64,000 bases of DNA from the NCBI GenBank assembly GCA_020851115.1, contig JADZDJ010000018.1:15780-79779 (forward strand), given 5' to 3'. Under the pieces are notes generated by a model, which saw only the letters and a list, made by a program, of their open reading frames with translations, had not been told where the DNA came from and made no database searches. Positions 2,756 through 62,855 of the stretch are shown here, one piece after another (position 1 is the first letter of the stretch; the number at the start of each line of letters is the position of its first letter). The position numbers and the translations under genes are program-made. The stretch is from Pirellulales bacterium. Its GTDB lineage: Bacteria > Planctomycetota > Planctomycetia > Pirellulales > JADZDJ01.

Positions 2756-3832
2756 ATGAATCAAAATCCGATATTTGTAATCCCAAATCCGAATCTAGCT
2801 CGCAATGCTAGAGTTTTATCCCAGAGAATACGTTCTGGTTTGAACGATGGAGCAGCGTTCTTTTTTGTGCCGCGTGCTTCGTGCGTCGGATTCTGCCTCG
2901 CTGCTGTGGCTTGGATTGCAACGCAATCCGCCTTTGCCGACGAATCGACCTCGGCCGCTTCTCCGGATGCCCCTAAGTATGCGCTCGCTTATCAATTCAA
3001 GCCTGGCGAAACCATCCGCACCAAGGTGCTGCAGCAAGTGCGGCTCGATACGACGATCGCCGGCAGTACGCAGGTTGCCGAAACGGTAAGCGGTTCGGTC
3101 AAGGTCTGGAAAATCGTCGGTGTCGATCCGCAGGGAGAGATTACTTTCGAGCATTCCGTCGAGAGCGTGAATATGCTCCAAAAGGTCACTGGTCGTCAGG
3201 AAGTCACCTACAACAGCCAGACCGACAAGCACGCTCCGCCACAGTTCCAGCAAGTGGCCAAGCTGGTTGGCGTGCCGCTGGCCGACGTCACGATCGACCG
3301 TTCGGGAAGAATTACCAAGAGAATTGAAAAACGCGCCAATGCGCAAATCGACGCTCAAAGCCAAATGCTCACGCCGCTGCCGGCCGATCCGATCGCGGTG
3401 GGCGAGGAATGGAACGAGCCGGTCGATATCGTGGTGTCGCTCGAAGCGGGCGAGAAAAAACTCATCAAAACGCGACAACACTACGCGCTGGAAAAAGTCG
3501 CTAGCGGCGTGGCCACCATCTCCGTCGCCACGCAGATTCTCACGCCAGTCCACGATCCCAAAGTGCAATCGCAGCTTGTGCAACGACTGACCAAGGGTAC
3601 GATCCGCTTCGACATCGACGCTGGCCGGGTGTTGTCGCAACAAATCGATCTCGACGAGCGAGTGCTGGGCTTTCAGGGCAACGACAGCAGCCTACATTAC
3701 CTCGGCCGATTTACCGAGCAGTACCAACCCGACGTACCGGAGACGGCCGCCGTGCCGCTTAAGACAGCGACCACGAAGGCGCTGGAAGCGCAGCCTTCAA
3801 CATCGACCGCAACTCGCGCGCTCAAACGCTAG
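2756..3832 (+). CDS. hypothetical secreted/membrane-anchored protein
   Basis: 358-aa ORF with AAGGAG 5 nt upstream of the ATG. It has an N-terminal hydrophobic segment ('FCLAAVAWIATQSAFADE'). No family recognised. Confidence 0.6.
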   Translation: MNQNPIFVIPNPNLARNARVLSQRIRSGLNDGAAFFFVPRASCVGFCLAAVAWIATQSAFADESTSAASPDAPKYALAYQFKPGETIRTKVLQQVRLDTTIAGSTQVAETVSGSVKVWKIVGVDPQGEITFEHSVESVNMLQKVTGRQEVTYNSQTDKHAPPQFQQVAKLVGVPLADVTIDRSGRITKRIEKRANAQIDAQSQMLTPLPADPIAVGEEWNEPVDIVVSLEAGEKKLIKTRQHYALEKVASGVATISVATQILTPVHDPKVQSQLVQRLTKGTIRFDIDAGRVLSQQIDLDERVLGFQGNDSSLHYLGRFTEQYQPDVPETAAVPLKTATTKALEAQPSTSTATRALKR

Positions 3833-3925
3833 ACCAGGACATGGGGCACCAGTTGTCTCCGACCAATTTCGACCTGCGGCAGCCGGCCGCATGATTCCCG
3901 CGACGTTTCCGACCGCGTGGCGCCA

Positions 3926-22318: not shown

Positions 22319-23464
22319 TTGTCGCAAAAAGTTCGATTGAGGGAAGTTGGACGGCATCTTGGCCGGGGAGAGGAAATCCTGAATTCGCGACCGTATACGA
22401 TCGGTTTCTTGACCGTGCTGGCGATGGTGGCGCTGCGCATTGTCGTTGGCTGGCACTTTTTCCAAGAAGGCCTCAACCACCAGCGCGATCCGAAGTGGTC
22501 TAGCGAGGGGTTTTTGCGTGCGGCCAAAGGGCCGCTTGCGGAGTTTTATCACGCCAAGGCCCCAGGGCCACACGGCTACTATCGGACGCTGCTGACGCCG
22601 ATGAACGTCGCCGAGGCAGACGATGCGCTGGACCGGCTCCAGACCGAGGAGCGAAAAGCGGCTGCAGCGGAAAATGCTGACAAGGCAAGCGACGACAAGA
22701 GTAGCCGCGCCGTCGCAAAGGCTGCCCAGTCGCCGATTTATGGCAAGTGGTTCGAGGCGATTTTACATGATTTGGGATCCCGGCGCGATCAAATTGCGAA
22801 CCACTTCGGTTTTTCTGACGAACAGAAGAGGCAACTCGATCTGTTGCTAAGCAATTACGACAAGAAGCTGATCGTCCTCCTGGAAGGGGATAGGTCGCAC
22901 CGCGGCTTTGCCGACGACATCAAGCGCTATCGGCACGAATTGTGGCGTAATCAGCAAATGCAACAGGCATCAGGGGCCGATCAGATTCCCAACATGCAAA
23001 CACGCAATGCGAAGCGTGCGGGTAGCCCGGCGGGAGAACTGCCGCCTGAGCAAATTGAATCGACGCCTGCTGATTGGTTGGGCGAAGTCCATGCGCTCGG
23101 CGAAGCATTCGACATGGAAGCGCTTGCCCTGCGGACGGATGAACAAATCAAGCTCGATGCATTGCCTGCGCCAATGACGGAATTGAAGCGAATGGACACA
23201 GCGGTGATCTGGTTGCTGTTGATCGGTGGTGGATGTTTGGTCGCAGGATTGTTTACGCGTCTGTCGGCAATTGCGTTGGCGCTGTTTTTAGCTTCGGTCG
23301 TGCTATCGCAGCCGTTTTGGGCGGCCGACGCCGTGAAAACAACCTACTTCGAGTGGGTCGAACTGGTTGCCTTGCTCGTGCTGGCCACATCGCGCGTGGG
23401 CCGTTGGGCAGGTTTGGACTTTTTTATTCACCATGTTGTGTTGCGGCCATTTCGTTCGGCATGA
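22319..23464 (+). CDS. DoxX-like membrane protein with a large hydrophilic insertion
   Basis: 381 aa with a TTG start. The N-terminal TM 'LAMVALRIVVGWHFFQEG' and C-terminal TMs ('LFTRLSAIALALFLASVVL', 'WVELVALLVLATSRVGRWAGLD') resemble DoxX. About 230 hydrophilic residues lie between them. Confidence 0.5.
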   Translation: MSQKVRLREVGRHLGRGEEILNSRPYTIGFLTVLAMVALRIVVGWHFFQEGLNHQRDPKWSSEGFLRAAKGPLAEFYHAKAPGPHGYYRTLLTPMNVAEADDALDRLQTEERKAAAAENADKASDDKSSRAVAKAAQSPIYGKWFEAILHDLGSRRDQIANHFGFSDEQKRQLDLLLSNYDKKLIVLLEGDRSHRGFADDIKRYRHELWRNQQMQQASGADQIPNMQTRNAKRAGSPAGELPPEQIESTPADWLGEVHALGEAFDMEALALRTDEQIKLDALPAPMTELKRMDTAVIWLLLIGGGCLVAGLFTRLSAIALALFLASVVLSQPFWAADAVKTTYFEWVELVALLVLATSRVGRWAGLDFFIHHVVLRPFRSA

Positions 23465-43521: not shown

Positions 43522-43845
43522 ATGTCCGACTTTAAGCCGGTTGCTCATGCGGCCGATCTTGCCGATCCCGGTAAAATATTAGTCGAGGTCGACGATCGCC
43601 TCGTCGTGCTGTTTCGCGTCGCTGGCAAATTTTATGCCATCGATGACCTGTGTACGCATGACGGCGGGCCGCTTAGCGAAGGGACGCTCGATGCCAAGGC
43701 GTGTACCATCGCCTGCCCGCGGCATGGGGCAAAGTTCGACATTCGCAACGGCGCGGCCCTCACCATGCCCGCCACGCAGCCGACGGCGTCGCATGAGGTG
43801 AAGGTGGAAGGCGATGTGGTGCTGGTAAAGCTGCACGAGACGTAA
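43522..43845 (+). CDS. Rieske [2Fe-2S] ferredoxin-type protein
   Basis: 107 aa with the Rieske ligand motifs 'CTHDGGPL' and 'CPRHGAKF'. Confidence 0.85.
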   Translation: MSDFKPVAHAADLADPGKILVEVDDRLVVLFRVAGKFYAIDDLCTHDGGPLSEGTLDAKACTIACPRHGAKFDIRNGAALTMPATQPTASHEVKVEGDVVLVKLHET

Positions 43846-43958
43846 GGAATCGCCAAACGCAAAATGTAAGACACAAAATTCAACATGTAAAATAGACAGG
43901 CATATGTCTGGTCAATTTCGCCGTTGCCCAGTGATGCATTTTACCCTGAGGTAGCCCG

Positions 43959-44285
43959 ATGCCCATTTCCGAAGATGCCGTTCGCGAAGCACTCAAGCAA
44001 GTCATCGATCCCGAATTGTTCGTCAACATCGTCGACTTAGGGCTTATTTACACCGTCGTCACCGAGCCGGCGGGCGAGGCGAACCCCGACAAAGAGAACA
44101 TCAAAATCGAAATGACCATGACTAGCCCCGCCTGCCCGGCAGGGCCGCAGCTCATCGGACAAAGCAAGCAAGTCCTCAGTGCGCTGGCGGGCGTAAACAA
44201 CGTCGAAATCAAGCTGGTGATGACGCCGCCTTGGTCCCCAGATTTGATGACCGAGGACGCGCGGGATCAGCTTGGAATCTTTTGA
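43959..44285 (+). CDS. DUF59/SufT-like metal-sulfur cluster assembly factor
   Basis: 108 aa with 'VIDPELFVNIVDLGLIY' and 'MTMTSPACPAG', typical of the DUF59 (MIP18/PaaD/SufT) family. Confidence 0.85.
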   Translation: MPISEDAVREALKQVIDPELFVNIVDLGLIYTVVTEPAGEANPDKENIKIEMTMTSPACPAGPQLIGQSKQVLSALAGVNNVEIKLVMTPPWSPDLMTEDARDQLGIF

Positions 44286-44404
44286 GGAGTGATTGCATCA
44301 ACGAGACACAGGCGATCAGAGTGGGCCTGAAACGATGAGCGGATGCAGGGATGGCTGGTTGGGGCAATTTCCTTGCGCCCTCACTCGTTCAAATCATCGC
44401 GTCT

Positions 44405-46153
44405 TCATCCGTTCATTCCGACTTCCTTTTTATGTCTCCAAGTCGCTGCGGTTCGATTCAGCAGTTTTGGAGCGCTGTCAAACTTGAACCGCTGCCGCTG
44501 TGCATCGAACATCGTCATGCCGCCGGCCGAAGAGATTGTGTGCGTTGCTAGCCAATCGCGGCTTACAAGCGGTTCGATACGACGAAATTCGGTTTCGACA
44601 TACCTGGTCGGCGACAGAGTTTCGATGTGGTGCAGCCGCAGACCGTAGCCGTAACGGCGCGATCCGTCCTGTGCAGGGCGAATGAGCCGTCCGCGGTCGC
44701 AGATGATCGGCCCGGCCATCCGCGCGCAGCGCACGTCCGACACAATCGGGTTCTGCGGATGAGGCAGCCAATGATCGCTCAGCGGATGATCGGCATGAAA
44801 CAGCGACAATTCGTCGTACGATGACCCTCCTTCGCATTCGGCGAGGGTCACGAACATCCACCAGTGACCGGCGTGTTCCAACAGGGTCGCGTCAAACGCC
44901 TTCACCTGCCGCCAAATCACTTTGTGTAGCGTCCAGCGGTCGGGAAACTCCTCGCAGCGGTATACTTCCAGCGTGCGATTGGCCGACGTTTCCGGGATCA
45001 TGTACAGTTCGCCTTGCCAGTCGAAAAGGAACGGGTACGAAAGGTGATAGGGCCGCTCAATGACCGGCCGCGGCGAATGCCACTGTCCGCGATCGTCGAA
45101 CTCCATGACCGAGATATGGGCTTTACCGGCGACATACAGATATTCCTCGAAAAAGACGTAGTGCTTGCCGTTGCGACAGATCGCGTGCGGGTCGGCCCAG
45201 AAACGGTCGATTGGCGGAATCATTTCTTGCAACTCCGCTCCCCCCGCGAACCAAGCGGAGTCCGTTTCGCCCGGCGATTCCCAACTCGCTGCGTCGCGGG
45301 CGTCTCCGGCAGGATTGAAACGACTCGCCATGAACCATTGATCGCGGCAGAATTGCTTCGCGAGCTTTCGCTTCAGCCGCCGAATTCCCAGTCGGACAAG
45401 GCCGGCAGTCAGCGTTCGACCGGTCAACGGCCGCGGCGAAGTCGTGCGGATCGAATTGGCAGCGATGCCGCTACGTTCGAGTCGTTCACAAAACTGCTTT
45501 TCGCCCAACTGCTGCAATCGCTCCAACTGTCGTGGTAGCAGCGAAACAGCGGGCCAATATAAATTACCACGATTCCGGGCCACGGAGAGCCGATCGACGG
45601 CGGTGAAGATCTCCGCCAACGTCACGAGTCGGTTGTCGCGGGTCAGCATTTGGAGCGATGCACGATTCACGTCGCTCTCGGCAAGTACTTCGTAAAGGCC
45701 ATTGAACTCGGCGCGGCCGTGGTCGGGCAAACCGCCGTGCTCGAACATCCACACGCCGAGCTTCGCTGCCGCCAGCACGTCGTCGCTTGCGGCTTGCCGG
45801 CTGAAACTGACGATGACATCCAGATCATACACTCCGAGCGAATCGTTGTTCTGCTCGTCGGCGGTCAACTGCGGCACGTCGAGAAGCAGTTGCTCAGCGT
45901 CATAGGGAGCAAGTGGATCGCGGTCGGCGGGCGAAACCAATTGATCGAGGCGAAGGTAAGACGATGCCAAGGCCGTCCGGCAATTCTGGCGCATCCGCTG
46001 GATGAAGTTCTGTTTTTTGGCCGAGCGGTTCAACAGTATGACCGACCAGCGAGCGTGCCCTTCGGCGGCCACGCGGCGGATCGCTTCCAGTGCCCATGCC
46101 GGCACGATGGTGAAATCGAGAAGCACGGCGGCTCGTAGTGGCTCGCGGGGCAT
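44405..46153 (-). CDS. large two-domain hypothetical protein (N-terminal Rossmann/formyltransferase-like?; C-terminal domain resembling the GH43-like 'GINT1 N-terminal' family)
   Basis: 582-aa ORF. C-terminal motifs are 'FWADPHAICRNGKHYVFFEEY', 'HLSYPFLFDWQGELYMIPETS' and 'DATLLEHAGHWWMFVT'. I associate these with bacterial proteins annotated as 'glucosamine inositolphosphorylceramide transferase family'. That is from memory and unverified. Confidence 0.5.
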   Translation of the reverse strand: MPREPLRAAVLLDFTIVPAWALEAIRRVAAEGHARWSVILLNRSAKKQNFIQRMRQNCRTALASSYLRLDQLVSPADRDPLAPYDAEQLLLDVPQLTADEQNNDSLGVYDLDVIVSFSRQAASDDVLAAAKLGVWMFEHGGLPDHGRAEFNGLYEVLAESDVNRASLQMLTRDNRLVTLAEIFTAVDRLSVARNRGNLYWPAVSLLPRQLERLQQLGEKQFCERLERSGIAANSIRTTSPRPLTGRTLTAGLVRLGIRRLKRKLAKQFCRDQWFMASRFNPAGDARDAASWESPGETDSAWFAGGAELQEMIPPIDRFWADPHAICRNGKHYVFFEEYLYVAGKAHISVMEFDDRGQWHSPRPVIERPYHLSYPFLFDWQGELYMIPETSANRTLEVYRCEEFPDRWTLHKVIWRQVKAFDATLLEHAGHWWMFVTLAECEGGSSYDELSLFHADHPLSDHWLPHPQNPIVSDVRCARMAGPIICDRGRLIRPAQDGSRRYGYGLRLHHIETLSPTRYVETEFRRIEPLVSRDWLATHTISSAGGMTMFDAQRQRFKFDSAPKLLNRTAATWRHKKEVGMNG

Positions 46154-46278
46154 TTTCTTGGGCGGTTGCGGACGAATCTGTCGTAAAGTTCTTCGTTCTA
46201 TAGCCTAGCATTCGCCAGGCCGATGGTTGGCTCAGGGGATGTCATTTGCGGCGGATAATTGAGAAAATCTGGCGACCA

Positions 46279-47394
46279 ATGGCACAATCAACCGTACTAC
46301 TCTACGAACTGGCTTGCAGTGGCGGGCTGTCGAGCACGCGTGCGGAGATGGTTGCGGATGATGCGCTCATTCGCGAAGGGAGGGCAATGCTGGCGTCGCT
46401 CGCGGCCGATTTTGCTGCGATCGACGGCGTGGAAACGCTGGTGATGCGCGACGCGCGCTGGACCGAGATGGAATTTCCAGGATGCAAGGTCTTGGAGATC
46501 GACTCTCAAGCGGCCGAGGAATGCGTGCTCCGGGAAATTTCCGGCCAAGCAACGGCGACCATGATCGTTGCGCCGGAAATCGATGGACTACTCATCGAAC
46601 GCTGTGAATGGGTCGAGCAGGCGGGAGGGCGATTGATCTCTCCATCGTGCAAAATCGCGACGCTGGCGACGGACAAGCAGTGGACGGCCGGGCATTTACA
46701 ACAGCATGGCGTTCGAGCGCCGCAGGGAGTGTTGCTCGATCGCGACGAACTGCTGCCGAGCGACTTCAAGTATCCCGCGGTGCTCAAGCCCATAGACGGG
46801 TGTGCGTCGCACGATGTATGGCTAGTCCGCGACGCAACCGATGCGCGGTGCATCTCTGTCCCACGATGGGCTTTTCCGATGCGGCTCGAAGAGTTTGTGC
46901 CGGGCATTGCGGCAAGCGTTGCCGTGCTGTGCGGACCGAACAAATTACAGCCGCTAACACCCTGCCGACAGCGGTTGTCGAACGATGGCCGCTTTCAATA
47001 TCTCGGTGGATCATTACCGATCGCCGTGGGACAGACATTCCCGCCTGCCGAGAGTCGAAGCCCACTGCTGGTAGACAAAAATGACTTCCCCACGGTGGGG
47101 CTGGCAAAGCGGGCGCAGGATTTGGCGGTGCGTGCCGTTGCGACATTACCCGAGCCGCGCGGCTACCTTGGCGTGGACCTGGTGTTAGGGGACGATCCAA
47201 ACGGCCAGGACGATGTGGTCATCGAAATCAATCCGCGGCTGACGACTTCCTATCTCGGCTTGCGAGCTGCTTCCAATGGCAATCTGGCTGCTGCGATGTG
47301 GGCGATTGCAGAAGGCCGTCTGGCGGCAGTGTCGTTTAGCGACGAACCAATCGAATTCGATAGCGATGGAGTCGTAAGAAGAATCAACGCATGA
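46279..47394 (+). CDS. ATP-grasp domain protein (Orf5/MfnD-like, H4MPT/methanofuran-linked family candidate)
   Basis: The track ORF starts at 46246; the ATG at 46279 gives 'MAQSTVLLYELACSGG'. ATP-grasp motifs: 'KYPAVLKPIDGCASHDVWLV', 'LEEFVPG', 'VVIEINPRLTTSY'. Confidence 0.7.
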   Translation: MAQSTVLLYELACSGGLSSTRAEMVADDALIREGRAMLASLAADFAAIDGVETLVMRDARWTEMEFPGCKVLEIDSQAAEECVLREISGQATATMIVAPEIDGLLIERCEWVEQAGGRLISPSCKIATLATDKQWTAGHLQQHGVRAPQGVLLDRDELLPSDFKYPAVLKPIDGCASHDVWLVRDATDARCISVPRWAFPMRLEEFVPGIAASVAVLCGPNKLQPLTPCRQRLSNDGRFQYLGGSLPIAVGQTFPPAESRSPLLVDKNDFPTVGLAKRAQDLAVRAVATLPEPRGYLGVDLVLGDDPNGQDDVVIEINPRLTTSYLGLRAASNGNLAAAMWAIAEGRLAAVSFSDEPIEFDSDGVVRRINA

Positions 47395-47457
47395 TTCACC
47401 ACGGAGGCGCGGAGCCATCCAGCAACCAACGAACCAGTTTGCCGAGTTCATTTTGGC

Positions 47458-48549
47458 ATGTTGAGCGACGCCTCGAGCATTCCGATGGGAGGGCCTTCTT
47501 CCTCTGTGTCACTGCGCCTCTGCGATTCAAAGTGCCTTGCGCTAGACATCGGCGGTGCGAATTTGAAAGCAGCCGACGGCCGAGGCTTTGCCGTGTCGCT
47601 GCCATTTCCGCTTTGGCGTCGGCCGGATCAATTGTCGGCGGCCATCGAGCAATTGATCGCCACAGCGCCAACCTGCGAGCGGATTGCCGTCACCATGACC
47701 GGTGAATTGGCCGATTGTTTCCAGACCAAGGCCGACGGAGTACGGTCGATCGTCCATGCGGCCGCGACGGCCGCGGGAAACCGCCCGGTCGAAATCTATC
47801 TGAACGATGGCCGCCTAGTGTCTCCAGCCGTCGCCGTGGCTGAGGGACTGCTGGCCGCGGCATCGAATTGGCATGTACTTGCGCGGTTTGCCGGCCGCTT
47901 TCTGAACGGCGAGCCGGGGCTGCTCATCGATCTTGGCTCGACCACCGCCGACATCATTCCGCTTGTGGACGGTCAGCCGGCGGCATCCGGTCGCACCGAT
48001 ACGCAGCGGTTGCTCTCATATGAATTGGCGTACACTGGCGTCGAGCGGACACCCGTTTGCGCCGTGGTCGACGCCATTCCCTATCGCGGCTATTGGTGTC
48101 CGGTTGCCCGTGAGTTGTTCGCAACGATGTGGGACGTATATCTGGTTCTCGGCGAACTTCCCGAAGAGATCGATTCGCTCCACACCGCCGATGGCCGACC
48201 AGCGACGACAGCGGCGGCCATCGACCGCTTGGCGCGAATGATCTGCGCCGATCGGGAGTCATTTGATCAAATCGATGCAATCGTCGCGGCTCGCCACATA
48301 GCGGCCAGCCAACGGCGGCAATTGGAAACTGCGATCGATCGAGTGTTGACATGTCTGTCGTCGCCACCAAAAACGATTGTGATTGCCGGCCAGGGGGAAT
48401 TCTTGCTGCAACAGATACTCAAACAGCGCGGCATTGGGGAACGCCGCGTGTCGCTGTCCGAGCAACTCGGCCCCGTGCTGTCCCGCTGCGCTCCGGCCCA
48501 TGCCCTGGCGGTGATCGCCGCCCAAGACACTTCTCACGCTCCGCCGTGA
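47458..48549 (+). CDS. hydantoinase_A/ASKHA-fold protein ('H4MPT-linked C1 transfer pathway protein', Orf7/MfnF-like candidate)
   Basis: 363 aa with 'CLALDIGGANLKAA' and 'LLIDLGSTTADIIPL' (ASKHA phosphate-binding motifs). The gene lies immediately downstream of the ATP-grasp gene. Confidence 0.6.
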   Translation: MLSDASSIPMGGPSSSVSLRLCDSKCLALDIGGANLKAADGRGFAVSLPFPLWRRPDQLSAAIEQLIATAPTCERIAVTMTGELADCFQTKADGVRSIVHAAATAAGNRPVEIYLNDGRLVSPAVAVAEGLLAAASNWHVLARFAGRFLNGEPGLLIDLGSTTADIIPLVDGQPAASGRTDTQRLLSYELAYTGVERTPVCAVVDAIPYRGYWCPVARELFATMWDVYLVLGELPEEIDSLHTADGRPATTAAAIDRLARMICADRESFDQIDAIVAARHIAASQRRQLETAIDRVLTCLSSPPKTIVIAGQGEFLLQQILKQRGIGERRVSLSEQLGPVLSRCAPAHALAVIAAQDTSHAPP

Positions 48550-54131: not shown

Positions 54132-55094
54132 TTAGCTTGAGGTTGGTCGATACTTCGCCATCACGTCTCTGCCTGCCTTGATCCATTGCCCAACCTGCAC
54201 CAAAACTTCCAAATCCTCCGCCGGCACAATCAGTTCCGTGCGTGAGCCGAATTTGATCATGCCAAATTTCTCGCCACGGTCGAAAACTTCGCCCGGCCGC
54301 AGGTCGCAGACGATTCGCCGTGCGATCATGCCGGAAACTTGCCGGCAAACCAAGCGGCGGTGTGGGGCCGTCGGTTCCTCCAGGCCGATCCACATGCTTT
54401 CGTTTTGGGTCGTGGCATCGGGATGGTCGGCGTGCAGAAACTTTCCAGGCGAATATTTTAACCGAATCACTCGTGCCCGGCACGGCATGCGGTTGACGTG
54501 TACGTTAAACAGCGTGAGAAAAATAGCGATCCGCACAGCCGGGCCGCCGACAAACTCGTGATGCTCCAGCGGCGCGATTTCAACGACCTTGCCGTCTGCC
54601 GGGGCGACCAGCAAATCGGGCATTTGCGGAATTTGCCGCGGCGGGTCGCGGAAAAATGACACCGCCAGCACGAACAACGCGCCGCTGGCAATGGCCGCCG
54701 GCCACCAAACGAACGCCAGAAAAATCGTTGCCGCCAGCAGCGGCCAACCCATCAATTGCACTTCAGCCAGGCCCCAGCGGGCCAGCGGAATTCGCTCTCG
54801 CCAGCGAAACGGGTCGTCTTCCGGCCGCCAATGGCATTCCGTTTGGTTGCGGCAGAATTTCAAGTCGCGAGGATCAAAAATCTCGTGCGGGCAGCCGGTC
54901 GGCTCGCCTTGGCGAAGCGCGGCCATTCGCCGGACGTAGCCTTTGCGAAACGTGTGCAAATACCACCGCCGCAGCCGGCCCCAGGCAAGCTCAATCGAAT
55001 AGCAAACGCCGCCGCCGGGCTGGATGCTGGAGATATTGGCGGGCAATGGCTCAGCCGCCGTGCGGGATTTGGTCGTAGAATCCGAGATTTGCAT
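54132..55094 (-). CDS. psd: phosphatidylserine decarboxylase family protein with ~105-aa N-terminal extension
   Basis: 320 aa. The C-terminal ~215 aa are PSD-like ('RIAIFLTLFNVHVNR', 'GEKFGMIKFGSRTEL' with the GS(T/R) self-cleavage context). The gene lies just upstream of pssA on the same strand. Confidence 0.85.
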   Translation of the reverse strand: MQISDSTTKSRTAAEPLPANISSIQPGGGVCYSIELAWGRLRRWYLHTFRKGYVRRMAALRQGEPTGCPHEIFDPRDLKFCRNQTECHWRPEDDPFRWRERIPLARWGLAEVQLMGWPLLAATIFLAFVWWPAAIASGALFVLAVSFFRDPPRQIPQMPDLLVAPADGKVVEIAPLEHHEFVGGPAVRIAIFLTLFNVHVNRMPCRARVIRLKYSPGKFLHADHPDATTQNESMWIGLEEPTAPHRRLVCRQVSGMIARRIVCDLRPGEVFDRGEKFGMIKFGSRTELIVPAEDLEVLVQVGQWIKAGRDVMAKYRPTSS

Positions 55095-55407
55095 GGAGTC
55101 GCCGCCGAGTGGGGCAGGTTTTCCGTCCTGCCGAGATTACCAACATCCGACGTCGCGGTTGTCCTGCGGAAATAGCGAGCACTTCAGGAAAAATGCCCGC
55201 CCCACGACCGTTGTTCGCCGCACAAGACGAAATCATATGACATACTTCAATTAGCCTGCCAAGCAACTCATCCTATCGGCTGCCAGGTCGTTTGAAAACC
55301 GATATTGTCGTCATTTGTCTCGTCTGAAATGCTTGCCGTCGTTGCGGCGCGTCCCCAACAGCCTCCGGCAAGCGTGTTTCGTCCAACCTATTTTGAAGGA
55401 GGTTGTT

Positions 55408-55602
55408 ATGCGTGCAGCGATCGTTTCGACGTTATTGATGGGATTGGTCATGGCGTTCAACGGCATTGCCCTGCAGCGTGCCGTCTGGGCGGAAGAATCC
55501 GAAGAGCCCATCGATGAAATCCGCCACTGCTGTTGCCAATACTGCGAAGGCTGCGACCCGCGGTTTTGCGATTGCGAGAATTGCGACTGCTGCAACGAGT
55601 AG
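55408..55602 (+). CDS. small secreted cysteine-rich peptide (64 aa), metallothionein-like or RiPP-precursor-like
   Basis: GAAGGAGG lies 5 nt upstream of the ATG at 55408. The product is 'MRAAIVSTLLMGLVMAFNGIALQRAVWA|EESEEPIDEIRHCCCQYCEGCDPRFCDCENCDCCNE'. The longer track ORF (55315) lacks an SD. Confidence 0.55.
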   Translation: MRAAIVSTLLMGLVMAFNGIALQRAVWAEESEEPIDEIRHCCCQYCEGCDPRFCDCENCDCCNE

Positions 55603-55694
55603 CGTTCAAGGATCGGGATGTTGCCCAGGAGTTTGCCCAGAGATCTTGCTCCCGATCCCCGATCCTGGAACACTGCGCCTAAATCCTCCAGCGG

Positions 55695-56714
55695 CTACTT
55701 CTCCAGTTTGATGGCCACTTTGCCCGTCGAATCGGTCGCCGCGCGCGACATTCCAGGCGTCGTGAAGTGCATCGTGATGTTTCCTTGCCGATCGACGGCG
55801 ATAAAGCCGCCGGCGTTTGCCGGGAAAATGTCGTCGAGCACCTGATGCACGGCTTGATCGAGCGTCAGGCCTTTGTAGGCCATCAGCGCGGCGACGTGAA
55901 ACGCGCCGACATTTCGCATGAAATTTTCACCCAGTCCGGTGCCGCTGATGGCGCAAGTGGCGTTGTCGGCATAGTTGCCCGCGCCGATGATCGGAGTATC
56001 GCCGACGCGGCCGTACATCTTATTGCTGTAGCCGCCGGTGGAGGTGGCGGCGGCTAAATTGCCTTGCTTGTCCAGGGCCACGCAGCCGACCGTCCCCGTT
56101 CCCGGCGTGGTGGCCTCATTTTTTCGCCGAGCTTCTTCCACGTCTTGGAGCCACTGTTGGCGCCGCTTCTCGGTGGTGAAGTAGGAGTTTGGCACGCGTT
56201 CGATCTGCGGCTTGTCCTTCATCGCATCGGCGAATTTCTCCGCGCCATCGCCGGCGAGTAGAATATGCGGCGTTTCAGTCATCACCAGGCGCGCGAGCGA
56301 AATCGGATTTTTCACGGTTTTCAAGCACGTGACGGCGCCGCATTTCTTGTTGCTGCCGTCCATGATCGAAGCGTCCATTTCGTGCGCGCCCGCCGCGTTG
56401 AAAATCGCCCCTTTGCCAGCATTAAATTGCGGATCGTCCTCGAGCACCCGCACGGTCGCCTCGACGGCATCGAGCGCCGTGCCCCCTTCGGCCAGAATCT
56501 TGCGGCCGGTTTCGAGCGCCTTGGCCAATCCGGCCTCCAGTTGTCGGCGCTCTTCCGGGGTAAAGTTGAGCGGTTTCGATCCAGCGCCGCCGTGCAGCGC
56601 GATGGCGAACTCGATGCTGGGTTTCGCGGCGTCTTGTGCGGCAGTCATCGTAGTAAAAGTCAATGCGGCGGCGCTGGCCAATCGGAGAAAGCAGCGGCGG
56701 ATCATCGTCGACAA
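55695..56714 (-). CDS. isoaspartyl peptidase / L-asparaginase (Ntn-hydrolase, plant-type asparaginase family)
   Basis: 339 aa with a signal peptide. Motifs: 'IALHGGAG', the autoprocessing site 'GTVGCVALD', and 'GAGNYADN'. Confidence 0.9.
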   Translation of the reverse strand: MSTMIRRCFLRLASAAALTFTTMTAAQDAAKPSIEFAIALHGGAGSKPLNFTPEERRQLEAGLAKALETGRKILAEGGTALDAVEATVRVLEDDPQFNAGKGAIFNAAGAHEMDASIMDGSNKKCGAVTCLKTVKNPISLARLVMTETPHILLAGDGAEKFADAMKDKPQIERVPNSYFTTEKRRQQWLQDVEEARRKNEATTPGTGTVGCVALDKQGNLAAATSTGGYSNKMYGRVGDTPIIGAGNYADNATCAISGTGLGENFMRNVGAFHVAALMAYKGLTLDQAVHQVLDDIFPANAGGFIAVDRQGNITMHFTTPGMSRAATDSTGKVAIKLEK

Positions 56715-56782: not shown

Positions 56783-57604
56783 TCATCCCATGCTGGCCAC
56801 ACCCAGCACTTTCCGCAGCGCCGTAATCGCCACTTCTCCAAACTGCCGCGGCGGGATCCGCCAAATCGCTGGGTTCATTAGTTCGACCGACACATAGCCG
56901 CGATAATCGATGTCGCGGAGCCGCTGAATCAGCGGTTCTAAATGAAATTCGCCGTCGCCGGGCAGAATGCGGTCGGCGTCGGCGGCAAACTCCCTCGGTT
57001 GCCCCGTGAGATCGCAAAGCTGCACATGAAACAGGTTTTGCGCGTGAAGGTAGGCGAGGTCGAACTCTTTGCTCGGTCCGGTAAAAAAATGGAACGCATC
57101 GAGGCAAAGACCCAAGTGGGGGCTGCCGATTTCGTCCACAAGCGCAGCGGCCGATTCGAGGTTGTTGGGATAGGTCGCCCGGGCTTGAAATTCCAGCGCC
57201 AGCCGCAGACCGCTGTCACCGGCTTGCTGGGCGGCCTGCACTAACGACAGTTGCAGCCGCTCGAAGTCTTGCTGGCCGAAGGGGCCTTGGACGTCGCCGG
57301 CGACAACCAGCGTCTGAACGCCCAGCGCACGGCAAAGTTGCAGCCGCTGCTCGAAGTGCGACCAATGCTCTTTGCGCGCTTCGCCTTGCGAAACTAGCAA
57401 GCCACCCTGCAAGCTGGCGACGGTCGCGGCCACCTGTTGTCCGTCGAGCAACCGCCGCGCGTCGTCGAGCGAGTGCGATTGGAGATATGTTTCCAGTTTC
57501 GTCAGCCAAACTTCAATTGCCGAACAGTGCCCCGCGGCATAGTCTTCCACATCCTGCTCAAACGCAGCATGCAGCGTGCAAACTTGGCTAAGTGCGGGGA
57601 TCAT
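56783..57604 (-). CDS. sugar phosphate isomerase/epimerase (xylose isomerase-like TIM barrel)
   Basis: 273 aa with 'LGVQTLVVAGD', 'LALEFQ', 'LCLDAFHF', 'HVQLCD' and 'VSVELMN'. Confidence 0.8.
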   Translation of the reverse strand: MIPALSQVCTLHAAFEQDVEDYAAGHCSAIEVWLTKLETYLQSHSLDDARRLLDGQQVAATVASLQGGLLVSQGEARKEHWSHFEQRLQLCRALGVQTLVVAGDVQGPFGQQDFERLQLSLVQAAQQAGDSGLRLALEFQARATYPNNLESAAALVDEIGSPHLGLCLDAFHFFTGPSKEFDLAYLHAQNLFHVQLCDLTGQPREFAADADRILPGDGEFHLEPLIQRLRDIDYRGYVSVELMNPAIWRIPPRQFGEVAITALRKVLGVASMG

Positions 57605-59342: not shown

Positions 59343-60122
59343 CTACGGTCGATAAATTCTCCAATTCGTCGTATCAAACTCCGGCACGAAATCATACCGA
59401 TCGACCTCGGCCGCATCATTGATGTCGGCTTGCAAGCCGACGCTGGTTAGGTTCATGCCCCCTTGCGTTTGCAAGAGAACTTCCGCAATCCGCTGGTTGG
59501 CGCGGGGATCTGGCGGCCGGATGCTCCCCATTGCGCTTTGCCAAACGTCGCAGGCGATGCGGGCTTCGTCGTTCACATCGGTCAGGGGGCTGTGCGATTG
59601 GGTCAGACGCTCGACAATCGCGCCGGCGAAAAACACGTCTTCCCGCGTAATCCGGCCGCGCGTGCCGGCGCACAAAATGTGGATCGGCTTCTTTCCGTCA
59701 AGTTGTGATGCGACGGCCGAAAAATTCGCCGGCGCGCCGATCAATACCCGCGCTGCCGCCGTGCAAATCTTCAAAGCCTGCGTGCCATTGGTCGTCGTAA
59801 AGATCAGCGTGCGATGACGAACGGCCGCTGGCGAAAAATCGCGTGGCGAGTTTCCCAGGTCAAAGCCCGAAATCGGCAATCCGCCGCGCTCGCCGCCGAG
59901 CAGGGGTGGCTCGGGCGATTGGGGCGTTTCTTTCCACTGCGACCTTTTTTGCCGGGCTTCCTCGATTTCCAAGCACGGAACGACCTCATGGGCACCGCTG
60001 GCTAAGGCCGCCGTAATCGTCGTCGATGCTCGCAGTACATCGACCACCACGACCACTCCGGCGGCCAATTCCGCGGCAGAGGTGAGCGACGGCAGGAAAT
60101 GGACGGCAAGCGTGCTATACAT
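59343..60122 (-). CDS. comB: 2-phosphosulfolactate phosphatase family protein (ComB-like)
   Basis: The track ORF runs to 60179; the ATG is at 60122. ComB family patterns: 'VVVVDVLRASTTITAAL', 'GGERGG', 'FDLGNSP', 'TTTNGTQAL'. Confidence 0.8.
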   Translation of the reverse strand: MYSTLAVHFLPSLTSAAELAAGVVVVVDVLRASTTITAALASGAHEVVPCLEIEEARQKRSQWKETPQSPEPPLLGGERGGLPISGFDLGNSPRDFSPAAVRHRTLIFTTTNGTQALKICTAAARVLIGAPANFSAVASQLDGKKPIHILCAGTRGRITREDVFFAGAIVERLTQSHSPLTDVNDEARIACDVWQSAMGSIRPPDPRANQRIAEVLLQTQGGMNLTSVGLQADINDAAEVDRYDFVPEFDTTNWRIYRP

Positions 60123-60362
60123 CGGCGAAGAATCTAGTAGTCTGATAGTCTGGTGTTTGGTTGATCGAACTGCGGTCATTCACCGCGTGGCAAGCCAGGA
60201 GCGTCGGCGACCGAAATCTTGCCGATGAGCCAGCCTACTAGCCACGATGATACGATTTTGCCGCCAAAGTCGGAATGGCACACCAGCTAACCTCGTGGCC
60301 TGTTTATCGTTAGCTCTCCAAACACCAGCCTACCAGACCACCAGGCAAGCTTCCCACCGCCC

Positions 60363-61073
60363 ATGCCCGTCGATAAGTCCGAAACTCGCGTTCGACGGAT
60401 GTTTGGTGAAATTGCTCCGCGGTACGACTACTTGAACCACCTGCTGTCGATGGGGACCGACAAGTATTGGCGGTGGCGAACGGTTCGTCGTGTGCCGCCG
60501 AACGGTGACGCCCCGCTTCTCGATTTATGCACCGGAACGGGCGATTTGGCGCTGGCCTATGCCAAGCGGCTGGGCGGTGGCGGCTGCATCGTCGGAGCCG
60601 ATTTTTGCCATGAAATGCTGGCGATCGGCCGCTCCAAGGCCGAACGCGCTGGATGTAACGGTCGCGTGACTTTTATCGAGGCCGACGCCCAACACTTGCC
60701 GTTTCCCGACGACCATTTTCAAATCGTCTGCGTTGCCTTCGGCCTGCGGAACATCACCGACACCGATCGAGGACTGAGCGAAATGGCGAGGGTCTGCCGC
60801 CCCGGTGGCCGAGTGGCCGTGCTTGAGTTTTCGATGCCCCGCTGGCAGCCATTCCGCGGCCTCTACCGTTGGTACTTCCGCCGCGTCCTGCCGAAGGTCG
60901 GTCAAGCACTGATGCGGAACCAGTCGGCAGCCTACAATTATCTGCCCGAGAGCGTCGGCGAATTTCCCGACGGCGAGGCGCTGGCCGCTCGAATGCGCGC
61001 CGCGGGGCTGAGCGATGTAAAGTATTGGCCGCTGACACTGGGTGTGGCGACGCTGTATGTAGGAATCAAATAA
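60363..61073 (+). CDS. ubiE: demethylmenaquinone / ubiquinone-menaquinone C-methyltransferase
   Basis: 236 aa with '[28 protein letters not shown]', '[12 protein letters not shown]' and 'VAFGLRN'. Confidence 0.9.
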
Positions 61074-61132
61074 GCCGACAAGGGCGGCGTCGCCAAGTTT
61101 TTCAATTTGCCATTCGCATTTTTCAATTTCCC

Positions 61133-61813
61133 ATGTCTCCCGTCGTCCTTGCCATCACCGGAGCCAGCGGCGCGATTTACGGAGTGCGGCTATTGGAAGT
61201 GCTGCTTGCGGCGAAGCGGACGGTGTATCTGACGATTAGCCCGTCGGGAGTCGCGGTGCTGAAAGAGGAGCTAGGTCTAGCGATAAACATCGAGCAGTTT
61301 TCGCAAAAAGACTTGTTCGAACGTCGATCTCACGCTCCGCGAGAGGAAAGACATCGGCAAATGCCTGCTAGCCAATCCGACAGCGACACTCCACCCCGGC
61401 AGCTCGCCGAGCGAGATGACTCTCTTGTGTACTGCCACCATCAAGACCTTATGTCTCCCATTGCCAGCGGCTCGTTTTTAACTGCCGGCATGGTCGTCTG
61501 CCCCTGTTCCGGCAGCACGCTGGCGGCGATTGCCCACTCGATGGGGAGCAATCTCATTCATCGCGCCGCCGAGGTTCACCTCAAGGAACGACGCAAGTTG
61601 GTGCTGGTCCCGCGGGAGACGCCGCTGTCGCTACCGCAGATTGACAACATGCGCAAGGCGACCGAAGCCGGCGCGGTTGTCCTGCCGGCCAGCCCGGGGT
61701 TTTATCATGGGCCAAAGTCAATCGACGACTTGGCGGATTTTGTTGTGGGGAGGATTTGCGATCAATTGGGAGTAGAGAAGGAGTTGATTCAACGTTGGGG
61801 AAGTCGGCGGTAG
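61133..61813 (+). CDS. ubiX: flavin prenyltransferase UbiX
   Basis: The track ORF starts at 60869 (open frame); the ATG at 61133 gives 'MSPVVLAITGASGAIYGVRLLEVL'. Motifs: 'VVCPCSGSTLAAIA' and 'HLKERRKLVLVPRETPL'. It carries a ~30-aa charged insertion relative to E. coli UbiX. Confidence 0.9.
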   Translation: MSPVVLAITGASGAIYGVRLLEVLLAAKRTVYLTISPSGVAVLKEELGLAINIEQFSQKDLFERRSHAPREERHRQMPASQSDSDTPPRQLAERDDSLVYCHHQDLMSPIASGSFLTAGMVVCPCSGSTLAAIAHSMGSNLIHRAAEVHLKERRKLVLVPRETPLSLPQIDNMRKATEAGAVVLPASPGFYHGPKSIDDLADFVVGRICDQLGVEKELIQRWGSRR

Positions 61814-61842
61814 GCAGGATGCGGTAGGCGGAAAATACCGCC
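61807..61842 (+). repeat. 9-nt direct repeat GCGGTAGGC x2 at 14-nt spacing plus GGCGG-AAAATA-CCGCC hairpin at the ubiX stop
   Basis: The repeats are at 61807-61815 and 61821-61829. The hairpin is at 61827-61842. The first repeat contains the ubiX stop codon TAG (61811-61813). Confidence 0.7.
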
Positions 61843-61871
61843 AGCCGCAATCCGCCTTCTGCATACCACGT

Positions 61872-62855
61872 ATGTTTGCCCACATTCGACAACTGCTGGA
61901 ACTCATTCGCATCAGCCATACGCTGTTCGCGCTGCCGTTCGCGCTGCTGGCAGCGCTAATGGCTTGGCGTATGAATTGGGAGCAGATTCAAGCCGAAGCG
62001 GCTATTAACACATTCATCGAGAGGATGGGGCGAGGGGGGGCCAGGCACGATGACTATGGAATTGGATTGGTCACGTCGTTCCGCTGGCAAGAACTCTTTG
62101 GCATTCTCATGGCCATGGTCGCCGCTCGCAGCGCGGCAATGGCGTTTAACCGCTTGGCCGATCGGAAAATGGACGCGCTAAATCCGCGCACGGCTGGTCG
62201 GCATTTGCCCGTGGGAGCTTTGTCGATTCGAGCTGTCGCGTCGTTCGCCGCGATGTCGTCGGCTGCGTTCATCGCCAGCACACTGATGTTCCTGCCGAAT
62301 CGGCTGCCGCTCTATTTGTCGGTTCCAGTGCTGCTGTTCTTGTTGGTTTACAGCTATACGAAGCGATTCACGTCGCTCGCTCATTTTTGGCTGGGGGCGG
62401 CGCTGATGCTCGCGCCGATTTCCGCCTGGATCGCCATTCGCGGCGAAGTCGTGATGCAGCAGCCGGCCGACCTGCTGCCCGTCATCGTCCTGGGTGCCGC
62501 GGTCCTGCTCTGGGTCAGCGGCTTCGACATGATTTACGCCTGCCAAGACGCCGACTTCGACCGCTCGCACGAACTGCATAGCGTCCCTGCGCGGCTGGGG
62601 GTGGCCGGTGCGTTACGGCTGGCGGCGGCGTGTCATGCCGGAACGGTAGTCCTTCTCCTCGCGCTGCCGAGCGTTTATCCTTTCTTTGGATGGATTTATT
62701 ACACCGCCGTCGCGGCGATTGCGGTATTGTTGATCTACGAACACGCCATCGTTCGCCCGAACGACCTGGCGCGAGTAAACACGGCATTTTTTCAAGTGAA
62801 TGCGGTCATCAGCATGGGGCTGCTCGTGGTCGGGGCGATTGATTTGTGGTTGTAG
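61872..62855 (+). CDS. UbiA-family polyprenyltransferase (4-hydroxybenzoate polyprenyltransferase-like; MqnP-type candidate)
   Basis: 327-aa polytopic protein with 'RISHTLFALPFAL', the Asp-rich 'NRLADRKMDALNPRT', and 'YACQDADFD'. Confidence 0.8.
   Translation: MFAHIRQLLELIRISHTLFALPFALLAALMAWRMNWEQIQAEAAINTFIERMGRGGARHDDYGIGLVTSFRWQELFGILMAMVAARSAAMAFNRLADRKMDALNPRTAGRHLPVGALSIRAVASFAAMSSAAFIASTLMFLPNRLPLYLSVPVLLFLLVYSYTKRFTSLAHFWLGAALMLAPISAWIAIRGEVVMQQPADLLPVIVLGAAVLLWVSGFDMIYACQDADFDRSHELHSVPARLGVAGALRLAAACHAGTVVLLLALPSVYPFFGWIYYTAVAAIAVLLIYEHAIVRPNDLARVNTAFFQVNAVISMGLLVVGAIDLWL

Follow-up and report, generated by a model that had tools for sequence, protein, structure and literature searches.

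What is the function of a 64-residue peptide that opens with an apparent export signal and closes with ten cysteines packed into 25 residues? The question is raised by a small gene on the forward strand of a 64-kb stretch of DNA (the window), part of an 80-kb contig of a Pirellulales MAG, in which the ORF is labelled by NCBI as hypothetical protein IT427_01410. A reading made from the bare letters of this DNA (the sequence-only reading) had offered three explanations, namely an exported metallothionein-like peptide, a disulfide-knotted signal or toxin peptide, and the precursor of a Cys-rich RiPP.

The small gene and its translation signals

The coding sequence occupies positions 55408..55602 (+ strand), from the ATG at 55408-55410 to the TAG stop at 55600-55602, and specifies a pre-peptide of 64 aa, MRAAIVSTLLMGLVMAFNGIALQRAVWAEESEEPIDEIRHCCCQYCEGCDPRFCDCENCDCCNE, that is nested in a TTG-extended ORF of 95 aa. 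A Shine-Dalgarno (SD) sequence, GAAGGAGG, lies at 55395..55402 on the same strand, 5 nt before the ATG, with TTGTT as the spacer. Its 8 nt, AAGGAGGT, make up the longest SD match among the ~45 candidate genes of the window, the majority of which lack any SD match of at least 5 nt. The product contains 10 Cys, located at residues 41-62 and hence within its last 25 residues. When all six-frame stop-to-stop segments of the 64 kb are compared, none exceeds the 10 Cys in 25 aa found here, the runners-up having 8 and 7, and because this is the top value over all of these segments the density is regarded as more than chance. The start signal, product length and Cys content described in the sequence-only reading are all confirmed from the sequence.

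The AGGAG core of the SD is present in all five loci for which DNA is available and has been retained although the ~70-nt spacer around it has diverged (33-46% identity). In these same five loci the sense frame is the only one that stays open, and the start and stop are conserved in all eight members of the family described below. The whole-CDS dN/dS ratio is 0.07-0.26 (Nei-Gojobori, three divergent DNA copies), with 29-32 of ~52 differences falling at third codon positions. Broken down by segment, the ratio is 0.19-0.40 for the signal peptide, 0.36-0.58 for the linker, the highest of the three, and at most 0.064 for the Cys core, a value that comes from the one computable pairwise comparison, synonymous sites being saturated. 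An antisense ORF of 120 aa at 55311-55673 was also considered and set aside as spurious, as it is open in the window copy alone and has no Pfam match.

The sequence-only reading had conceded that its proposal would fall if the ORF had neither a translation signal nor conserved homologues, or if the Cys positions varied among homologues. Homologues were found, and strong purifying selection has kept nine of the ten Cys positions invariant, from which it follows that the ORF is not spurious. This 64-codon ORF is a real, conserved and extremely rare gene of uncultured Pirellulales.

Family members and their distribution

Eight distinct members, 61-64 aa in length, make up the family: the window copy together with P0002, P0003, P0004, P0005 (the same as locus L002), P0006, P0007 and P0008. 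All seven homologues are on Pirellulales-like metagenome contigs, and one of them, P0004, had been over-called as a protein of 134 aa, the true ORF being 62 aa. A word-indexed search of 5.8 billion protein clusters returned the ORF itself and one homologue, and an exhaustive phmmer search of 1.84 billion representatives returned two relatives only, while a profile search of the 5.8 billion clusters returned seven and raised the family total to eight. This corresponds to eight sequences among about 15 billion proteins. At the DNA level, a scan of genomes with the conserved upstream motif identified a single locus, L002, in a Pirellulales MAG; the same scan of metagenome contigs gave no match, and peptide-pattern scans of both genome contigs and metagenome contigs found none.

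Pfam and NCBIfam gave 0 matches at E <=10 for the peptide in its full-length and mature forms and for two homologues, and the family profile gave 0 matches among PDB chains. The peptide belongs to no described family, and the small gene is an accessory feature of a narrow lineage.

Signal peptide and acidic linker

Residues 1-28, MRAAIVSTLLMGLVMAFNGIALQRAVWA (55408..55491, + strand), are predicted to form a Sec-type (type I) signal peptide with cleavage between VWA and EE. The n-region is MR, and the hydrophobic core reaches a maximum 15-residue Kyte-Doolittle value of 2.0-2.4. All eight members have a signal of 28 aa with an invariant Ala at -1 and Ala or Val at -3, and the residue that follows the cleavage site is acidic in seven of them, the exception being P0005, which has His and then Asp. 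The helix residues L9, G12, L13 and G19 are also invariant. No twin-arginine motif, lipobox Cys or prepilin motif was found in the signal segments. The charge of the n-region, the h-region and the small residues at -3 and -1 are therefore those of a Sec/SPase I pre-protein, and the proposal of a Sec-type leader in the sequence-only reading holds by sequence rules for the whole family. Export and cleavage after Ala28 would be the expected outcome.

The predicted cleavage site is followed by an acidic linker at residues 29-39, EESEEPIDEIR (55492..55524, + strand), which is always a run of Asp and Glu and varies in length from 8 to 11 aa.

The cysteine-rich core

The remaining residues, 40-64, form the Cys-rich core, HCCCQYCEGCDPRFCDCENCDCCNE (55525..55599, + strand), in which Cys makes up 40% of the 25 residues and almost every Cys precedes an Asp or Glu. 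The pattern shared by the family is H-C-x-C-x-x-C-[ED]-G-C-D-P-R-x-C-D-C-x-x-C-[DE]-C-C-N-E-stop, and the invariant residues are H40, C41, C43, C46, G48, C49, D50, P51, R52, C54, D55, C56, C59, C61, C62, N63 and E64. Nine Cys and one His are thus invariant, and the Cys spacing C-x-C-x-x-C-x-x-C-x4-C-x-C-x-x-C-x-C-C is kept throughout. The tenth Cys is at position 42 in three members and at position 44 in three others, and it is missing in two; one member carries an extra Cys in the linker. The mature peptides accordingly contain 10, 10, 9, 11, 10, 10, 10 and 9 Cys. They are 33-36 aa long with a net charge of -10 to -14, that of the window being 36 aa with a charge of about -10.

AlphaFold2, run with a seq­uence alignment of seven members, gave an overall pLDDT of 62. 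Residues 3-29 were modelled as a helix with a pLDDT of about 80, and the tail, predicted to be disordered, was modelled without structure at a pLDDT of about 50.

An Fe-S reading of the CxxCxxCxxxxC stretch was considered and rejected. The spacing used for comparison, CxxCxxCxxxCP, differs from the one found here, the Sec pathway exports unfolded chains, and a Tat motif is absent.

Genomic neighborhood and the intergenic regions

Pfam scans of ~57 ORFs in the window revealed housekeeping and envelope genes, among them dxs, NAD kinase, metG, glyS, ksgA, ribE, pssA, psd, UbiX-UbiA, an isoaspartyl peptidase and TIM barrels. Three of these surround the small gene, all on the minus strand, namely psd (PS_Dcarbxylase, 54132-55094), an Asparaginase_2 gene of the isoaspartyl peptidase type (55695-56714), which is convergent with the small gene, and an AP_endonuc_2 TIM barrel (56783-57604). 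The Pfam domains agree with the neighbors that had been named from sequence alone. The small gene is monocistronic, the next gene downstream being convergent; this convergent gene is an isoaspartyl peptidase in the window and a DUF1501 gene in several relatives. The only constant neighbor is the divergent psd-pssA operon; at loci with an upstream flank available, the small gene is divergent from psd-pssA-ribE-ksgA, and the Psd of carriers is 82-86% identical to that of the window. The 64-kb window and the related loci yielded no gene for a metal pump or other efflux system, a metal chaperone or a metal sensor, and the Pfam scans of the window detected no exporter of the peptidase-ABC type.

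A non-coding block of 113 nt (55214..55326) is situated in the interval between the small gene and the divergent psd. No other DNA of the locus is as well conserved: the block has an identity of 76-92% across loci versus 33-46% for the spacer, 18-37% for the 3' flank and 68-75% for the CDS. In relatives it starts ~14 nt from the psd start codon, and the window carries an extra ~105 nt there. The block has no Rfam match and no match to the sigma-70 consensus, and its sub-motifs do not recur in the window beyond chance. A structured RNA was rejected, since RNAalifold gave positive (unfavorable) covariation terms on both strands and the helices are broken in the window copy, and a by-eye comparison with Zur, Fur, IdeR and ArsR operators was unconvincing. 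The block is probably a shared promoter/operator, the control region of psd and the small gene, or a 5'-UTR region.

On its other side, the small gene is separated from the convergent isoaspartyl peptidase gene by a stem-loop (55599..55676) with inverted repeats at 55601-55617/55658-55674 and 55610-55618/55650-55658. The RNA fold has an energy of -33.8 kcal/mol (z = -3.3), and the structure is probably a transcription terminator that lacks a U-tract; a simple consensus scan did not call it a terminator, there being no T-run.

Sister genomes and a candidate distant relative

Enolase immediately adjoins psd in three sister loci, L006, L008 and L009, whose Psd proteins are 77-84% identical to that of the window; the small gene and the conserved block are both missing there, and nothing Cys-rich lies beside psd. 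A fourth, L007, likewise has nothing Cys-rich in this position, though other small ORFs are present. The existence of psd-pssA relatives without the gene (L006, L008 and L009) indicates that Psd and PssA do not need the small peptide, and as the gene is confined to a narrow lineage, its linkage to psd may be merely inherited synteny.

The sole candidate among the sister loci examined is L005, on a 4.2-Mb contig with a Psd 79% identical to that of the window, where a gap of 1.1 kb without called genes separates a PEP-CTERM protein from psd. An unannotated ORF in this gap (3334..3144, minus strand) has the same position and orientation relative to psd as the small gene and is preceded by AGGAG 7 nt upstream. 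Its product, MIVKLFGSLALVAALAAAGIASSGA followed by KPACTKCSKSTAACSCPCGAECGCGASCACPGCTCCSK, has 63 aa, a predicted signal peptide and 12 Cys in a mature part of 38 aa, and ends in CxCxxCxCCxx-stop as in the family; its net charge is +3, and it is G/A/S/K-rich and metallothionein-like. An hhalign comparison with the family profile aligned it end to end at 28% identity (E = 5.4e-4, probability 30%), and it has no homologues of its own in the protein collection. These similarities are suggestive of a distant relative of the family. If the two are homologous, the retention of the Cys spacing, and not of the acidity, suggests that the Cys pattern, along with the export signal, is the conserved functional feature.

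An exported metal-thiolate peptide as the best reading

The best reading of these data, which we hold tentatively and with somewhat less than even confidence, is that of an exported metallothionein-like metal-thiolate peptide acting outside the cytoplasm. The strong ribosome-binding site would allow efficient translation of the small pre-peptide, which would cross by the Sec pathway in unfolded form. Signal peptidase I would then cut after Ala28 and release a 36-residue acidic peptide into the periplasm or beyond, where the nine invariant Cys and the invariant His, possibly with nearby carboxylates, would wrap soft metals into a metal-thiolate cluster. The most plausible metal outside the cytoplasm would be Cu(I), with Zn(II) or Cd(II) as alternatives, and the peptide would serve as an extracytoplasmic metal buffer or scavenger, in the manner of a metallothionein or of a gene-encoded phytochelatin.

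This proposal is favored by the shared length and architecture of all eight members and by the CxC, CxxC and CC spacing of their Cys. Low mass, a very high Cys content and these same motifs are the operational traits of metallothioneins, and all are found here. The mammalian metallothionein beta-domain has 9 Cys and the Zn4Cys9His2 cluster of SmtA has 9 Cys and 2 His, so that the ligand counts of M3Cys9 and Zn4Cys9His2 clusters are matched by nine Cys and a His. The disordered tail in the AlphaFold model is as expected for an apo-thionein. The low dN/dS, above all in the core, and the signal rules obeyed by every member also count in favor, and so does the L005 ORF, which keeps the Cys pattern in a composition typical of metallothioneins. 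Cys-based metal buffering outside the cytoplasm has precedents as well. Csp1, which is exported by Tat, stores Cu(I) outside the cytoplasm by means of Cys thiolates (PMC7558416), bufferins are Sec-exported and provide Cys-derived copper buffering in the periplasm (PMC11626156), and ribosomally made (Glu-Cys)n peptides displayed outside the cytoplasm bind Cd, Hg, Zn, Pb and Cu (PMC4611968).

Some points stand against it. The extracytoplasmic space is normally oxidizing and ten thiols might form disulfides there, the net charge of -10 to -14 is unlike that of known metallothioneins, and the sequence comparisons yield neither a metallothionein family match nor a metal-related neighbor. The peptide qualifies as a metallothionein only in the operational, compositional sense, and as a predicted exported protein by the sequence rules for Sec signals. 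We infer export, cleavage, thiols in the reduced state and the binding of metal; the reality of the gene, its conserved architecture and the selection on its Cys and His residues are shown by the data. With regard to the three explanations offered in the sequence-only reading, the exported metallothionein-like peptide fits best, and the disulfide and RiPP explanations are weakened by the evidence considered below.

Alternative explanations

Under a first alternative, the product would be a secreted peptide rich in disulfides (for instance a signal, a toxin, a bacteriocin or a protease inhibitor), exported by Sec and oxidized to a compact, stable and bioactive 33-36-mer knotted by several disulfides. 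A Sec-type signal leads to the compartment where disulfides normally form, exactly 10 Cys are present in five of the eight members, and no feature of the family is more conserved than its Cys framework. However, the invariant Cys number only nine, the total is 9 in two members and 11 in another, and the position of the tenth differs by two residues. In knotted peptides, selection usually acts against unpaired Cys. A count that ranges from 9 to 11 argues against an obligatory knot, and odd counts with a movable tenth Cys are more readily reconciled with a thiolate cluster than with a fixed framework of disulfides. CCC, CC and CxC runs are, moreover, sterically poor for five intramolecular disulfides in 22 residues, and AlphaFold shows no fold. 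Neither the window nor L002-L004 has a linked gene for immunity, for a transporter or for a receptor, and the non-Cys core residues G48, D50, P51, R52, D55, N63 and E64 are invariant, not hypervariable. On balance we consider a disulfide-rich peptide unlikely.

The product could also be a RiPP precursor that carries a Sec signal and is matured by an enzyme encoded elsewhere, the Cys being converted before export to thiooxazoles by an MNIO or to Cys-to-Asp/Glu thioethers by a radical-SAM enzyme. Cys together with Asp or Glu is the pair cross-linked in thioethers of the ranthipeptide and QhpC type, and C-[DE] dyads recur here at nearly every core Cys. Bufferins, too, are Cys-containing RiPP precursors with a Sec signal that chelate periplasmic copper (PMC11626156; PMC12452194). 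Against this, the sequence-only reading had noted that no maturase adjoins the gene, and Pfam scans extend its absence to the whole window, with no radical-SAM, MNIO/DUF692, DUF2063, YcaO or Lan-type gene among the ~57 ORFs of the 64 kb. None of these types appears in four other loci either, L002-L004 and the P0004 contig, which were covered by gene tables or ORF lists. MNIO precursor genes are described as lying directly before the MNIO gene (PMC12452194), and none adjoins here; the sole DoxX-like ORF (22319-23464) is 32 kb off and has no MNIO beside it. Precursor models in NCBIfam and Pfam, SCIFF and DUF2282 among them, likewise give no match, and the MNIO-landscape supplementary tables do not contain the motif. 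A RiPP precursor is therefore, in our estimate, quite unlikely. A bolder proposal is that the peptide represents the precursor or prototype of a new class of Sec-exported thiol metallophores. In its strongest form, with heavy modification before export by an unlinked enzyme (for example to Cys-Asp/Glu thioethers or Cys-derived heterocycles), it would be an exception to the placement of RiPP precursors beside their maturases, and this form we would rate as very unlikely; the milder form coincides with our best reading.

A further alternative is a microprotein with an uncleaved signal-anchor. Its N-terminal helix would remain in the cytoplasmic membrane, and its acidic, Cys-rich tail would sit at the periplasmic face, either sensing redox state or metals or interacting with the membrane enzymes Psd and PssA. 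It could account for the divergent pairing with psd-pssA across the conserved 113-nt block at every locus with an upstream flank, and for the single 27-residue helix of the AlphaFold model with its invariant L9, G12, L13 and G19. The invariant Ala at -1, the small residue at -3 and the acidic residues at +1/+2 are nevertheless those of a canonical signal peptidase I site, and the tail evolves more slowly than the helix segment (dN/dS 0.19-0.40 for the latter). The pairing itself loses weight, given that L006, L008 and L009 keep psd-pssA without the small gene and that synteny within a narrow clade may be merely inherited. We judge an anchored microprotein most unlikely.

Finally, the ORF might be spurious, or it might encode a leader peptide that senses cysteine on behalf of a gene downstream, and the short, low-complexity Cys/Asp/Glu sequence and its annotation as hypothetical might point that way. 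This explanation is refuted and has practically no probability left, given purifying selection in the sense frame only, a start and stop kept in eight members, and a next gene (55695-56714) that lies on the opposite strand behind a strong stem-loop, leaving nothing to attenuate.

Comparison with known systems

The exported metal-thiolate peptide proposed here can be compared with several known systems. The metallothioneins SmtA/BmtA and MymT (Mycobacterium) are likewise small and very Cys-rich, with CxC, CxxC and CC motifs and a disordered apo-form, and His serves as an extra ligand in SmtA, which may be set beside the nine invariant Cys and the His found here. There is no sequence similarity to any of them, however, and the present peptides are far more acidic and shorter (33-36 aa when mature). 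Known bacterial metallothioneins, SmtA/BmtA included, are cytosolic and have no signal peptide (PMC7558416), whereas all eight members of this family carry a Sec-type signal of 28 aa.

Bufferins (BufA1/DUF2282 and BufA2/BUF_6/12Cys) resemble the family in being small Cys-containing proteins with a Sec signal, and they act as periplasmic copper buffers (PMC11626156). They are longer (80-120 aa for DUF2282 members), have 4, 6 or 12 conserved Cys, and are encoded directly upstream of MNIO (DUF692) and DUF2063 genes, metal being bound by thiooxazoles; neither gene was found here in the 64 kb or in the related loci, and the bufferin signatures DUF2282 and BUF_6/12Cys gave no HMM match. Csp1 offers another likeness as an exported multi-Cu(I) store based on Cys thiolates in the Gram-negative envelope (PMC7558416). 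It is, however, a bundle of four helices that is folded before its export by Tat and assembles into tetramers, in contrast to the Sec-type signal seen here, which has no RR and a single Arg in the n-region, and to a mature part of 36 aa with a 25-residue tail that is predicted to be disordered and non-helical.

The alternation of Cys with acidic residues and the C-[DE] dyads are shared with phytochelatins and with the synthetic EC20, (Glu-Cys)n-Gly. In nature, phytochelatins are synthesized by enzymes and contain gamma-Glu bonds, and EC20 is engineered, whereas the present peptide is the product of a natural gene with a fixed, non-repetitive pattern and with the invariant motifs G-C-D-P-R and C-C-N-E. 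Ranthipeptides/SCIFF and the QhpC gamma-subunit also have short Cys-rich cores with Asp or Glu near Cys. Unlike the present family, they have a leader peptide and an adjacent SPASM radical-SAM gene; here there is a Sec signal, no match and no such neighbor.

A search of the literature on exported bacterial metallothioneins, on planctomycete metallothioneins and on the motif itself found nothing relevant. An exported, highly acidic and Cys-rich metal-binding peptide, as proposed here, has to our knowledge not been described for bacteria.

Implications

Metallothioneins are rare in bacteria and, where described, located in the cytosol, and the known extracytoplasmic buffering of soft metals relies on folded proteins (Csp1, CusF, MerP) or on modified RiPPs (bufferins). 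If the reading as an exported metal-thiolate peptide is true, an unmodified Sec-exported thiolate peptide of 36 residues would be a third and much simpler solution, and it would constitute a natural counterpart of the 'synthetic phytochelatins' for bioremediation. On this reading, which is also the milder form of the metallophore proposal, the peptide would be the first natural exported metallothionein/phytochelatin-like peptide in bacteria. It is short enough for chemical synthesis, which makes the hypothesis directly testable. The candidate relative in L005 was called by no gene finder, and this suggests that exported Cys-rich micro-peptides may be under-counted in Planctomycetota.

Conserved non-coding sequence between psd and the small gene

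Between psd, the phosphatidylserine decarboxylase-family gene, and the divergently oriented small gene for the Cys-rich peptide lies a conserved non-coding block of 113 nt (window 55214-55326), which is 76-92% identical across loci and better conserved than the small-gene coding sequence itself, while identity in its flanks is at random level. Within the block we found the invariant stretches TATGACATA, ATCCTATCGG and GTCGTTTG, a direct repeat (TCGTCTCGTCTG) and, on the psd side, an ATTTC-N12-GAAAT dyad or hairpin. A search of the block against Rfam gave no match, and no sigma-70 consensus was found in it. In the four related loci that carry the small-gene family (L001-L004), about 14 nt separate the psd ATG from the block start; the window has about 105 nt extra in the spacer between the psd start codon and the block (window 55095-55213), and the left arm of its psd-proximal palindrome is degraded.

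The 3' stem-loop and an antisense ORF

A strong stem-loop that lacks a U-tract (window 55599-55676; -33.8 kcal/mol, z = -3.3) is located between the convergent small gene and isoaspartyl-peptidase gene, and is probably a bidirectional terminator. The entire small gene is also covered by an ORF of 120 aa on the minus strand (window 55311-55673). This ORF was rejected as a gene and is a by-product of sense-strand composition, given that it is open in the window copy only and has no Pfam match.

Cys-rich sequences in a sister genome

In the sister Pirellulales genome L005, an unannotated 63-aa ORF (3144-3334, minus strand) occupies the same position and orientation beside psd as the small gene. 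The encoded product combines a predicted signal peptide with a tail of 38 aa, which contains 12 Cys and is metallothionein-like in its G/A/S/K composition. Towards the C-terminus its Cys residues are spaced as in the window family; hhalign aligned the two with E = 5.4e-4, and the ORF is a probable distant relative. Adjoining it is a second Cys-rich stretch (~3600-3870, minus strand) without a Pfam match, which has a signal-peptide-like start (MPQRNTKIVREFLPLVMAFAMALPGGPISCCGSCG...) and carries on in another frame with ...GCACCQKAGGCCSHKSAAKSCCEN...; this may be a frameshifted gene, since ribE is also broken into two ORFs in the same long-read assembly.

Other genes in the window

Genes for Rieske ferredoxin, FeS_assembly_P, GINT1_N-domain, ATP-grasp_3 and Hydantoinase_A-like proteins form a cluster, beyond which a 2-phosphosulfolactate phosphatase (ComB-like) is encoded (window 43522-48549 and 59343-60179), and we suspect that they serve cofactor (methanopterin/coenzyme-type) biosynthesis. 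A Flavoprotein-family (UbiX/CoaC-like) gene and an adjoining UbiA prenyltransferase gene are found at window 60869-62855. The Pfam Flavoprotein family also takes in the LanD/EpiD Cys decarboxylases of RiPPs; a link to the small peptide is unlikely, since the gene is paired with UbiA and the peptide does not end in Cys.

Lineage differences at the psd junction

The downstream partner of the small gene varies, being DUF1501/DUF1553 in the Pirellulales MAG locus L002, DUF1501 in L003-L004 and the isoaspartyl peptidase in the window. In three close relatives (L006, L008 and L009; Psd 77-84% identical), enolase is directly divergent from psd and the small Cys-rich gene is absent from the psd upstream side. 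The 113-nt block was likewise not found in sister genomes without the small gene. Given the enolase beside psd and the missing small gene in these three loci, the small gene and the block together are the sign of a rearrangement or insertion, specific to the lineage, at the psd junction.
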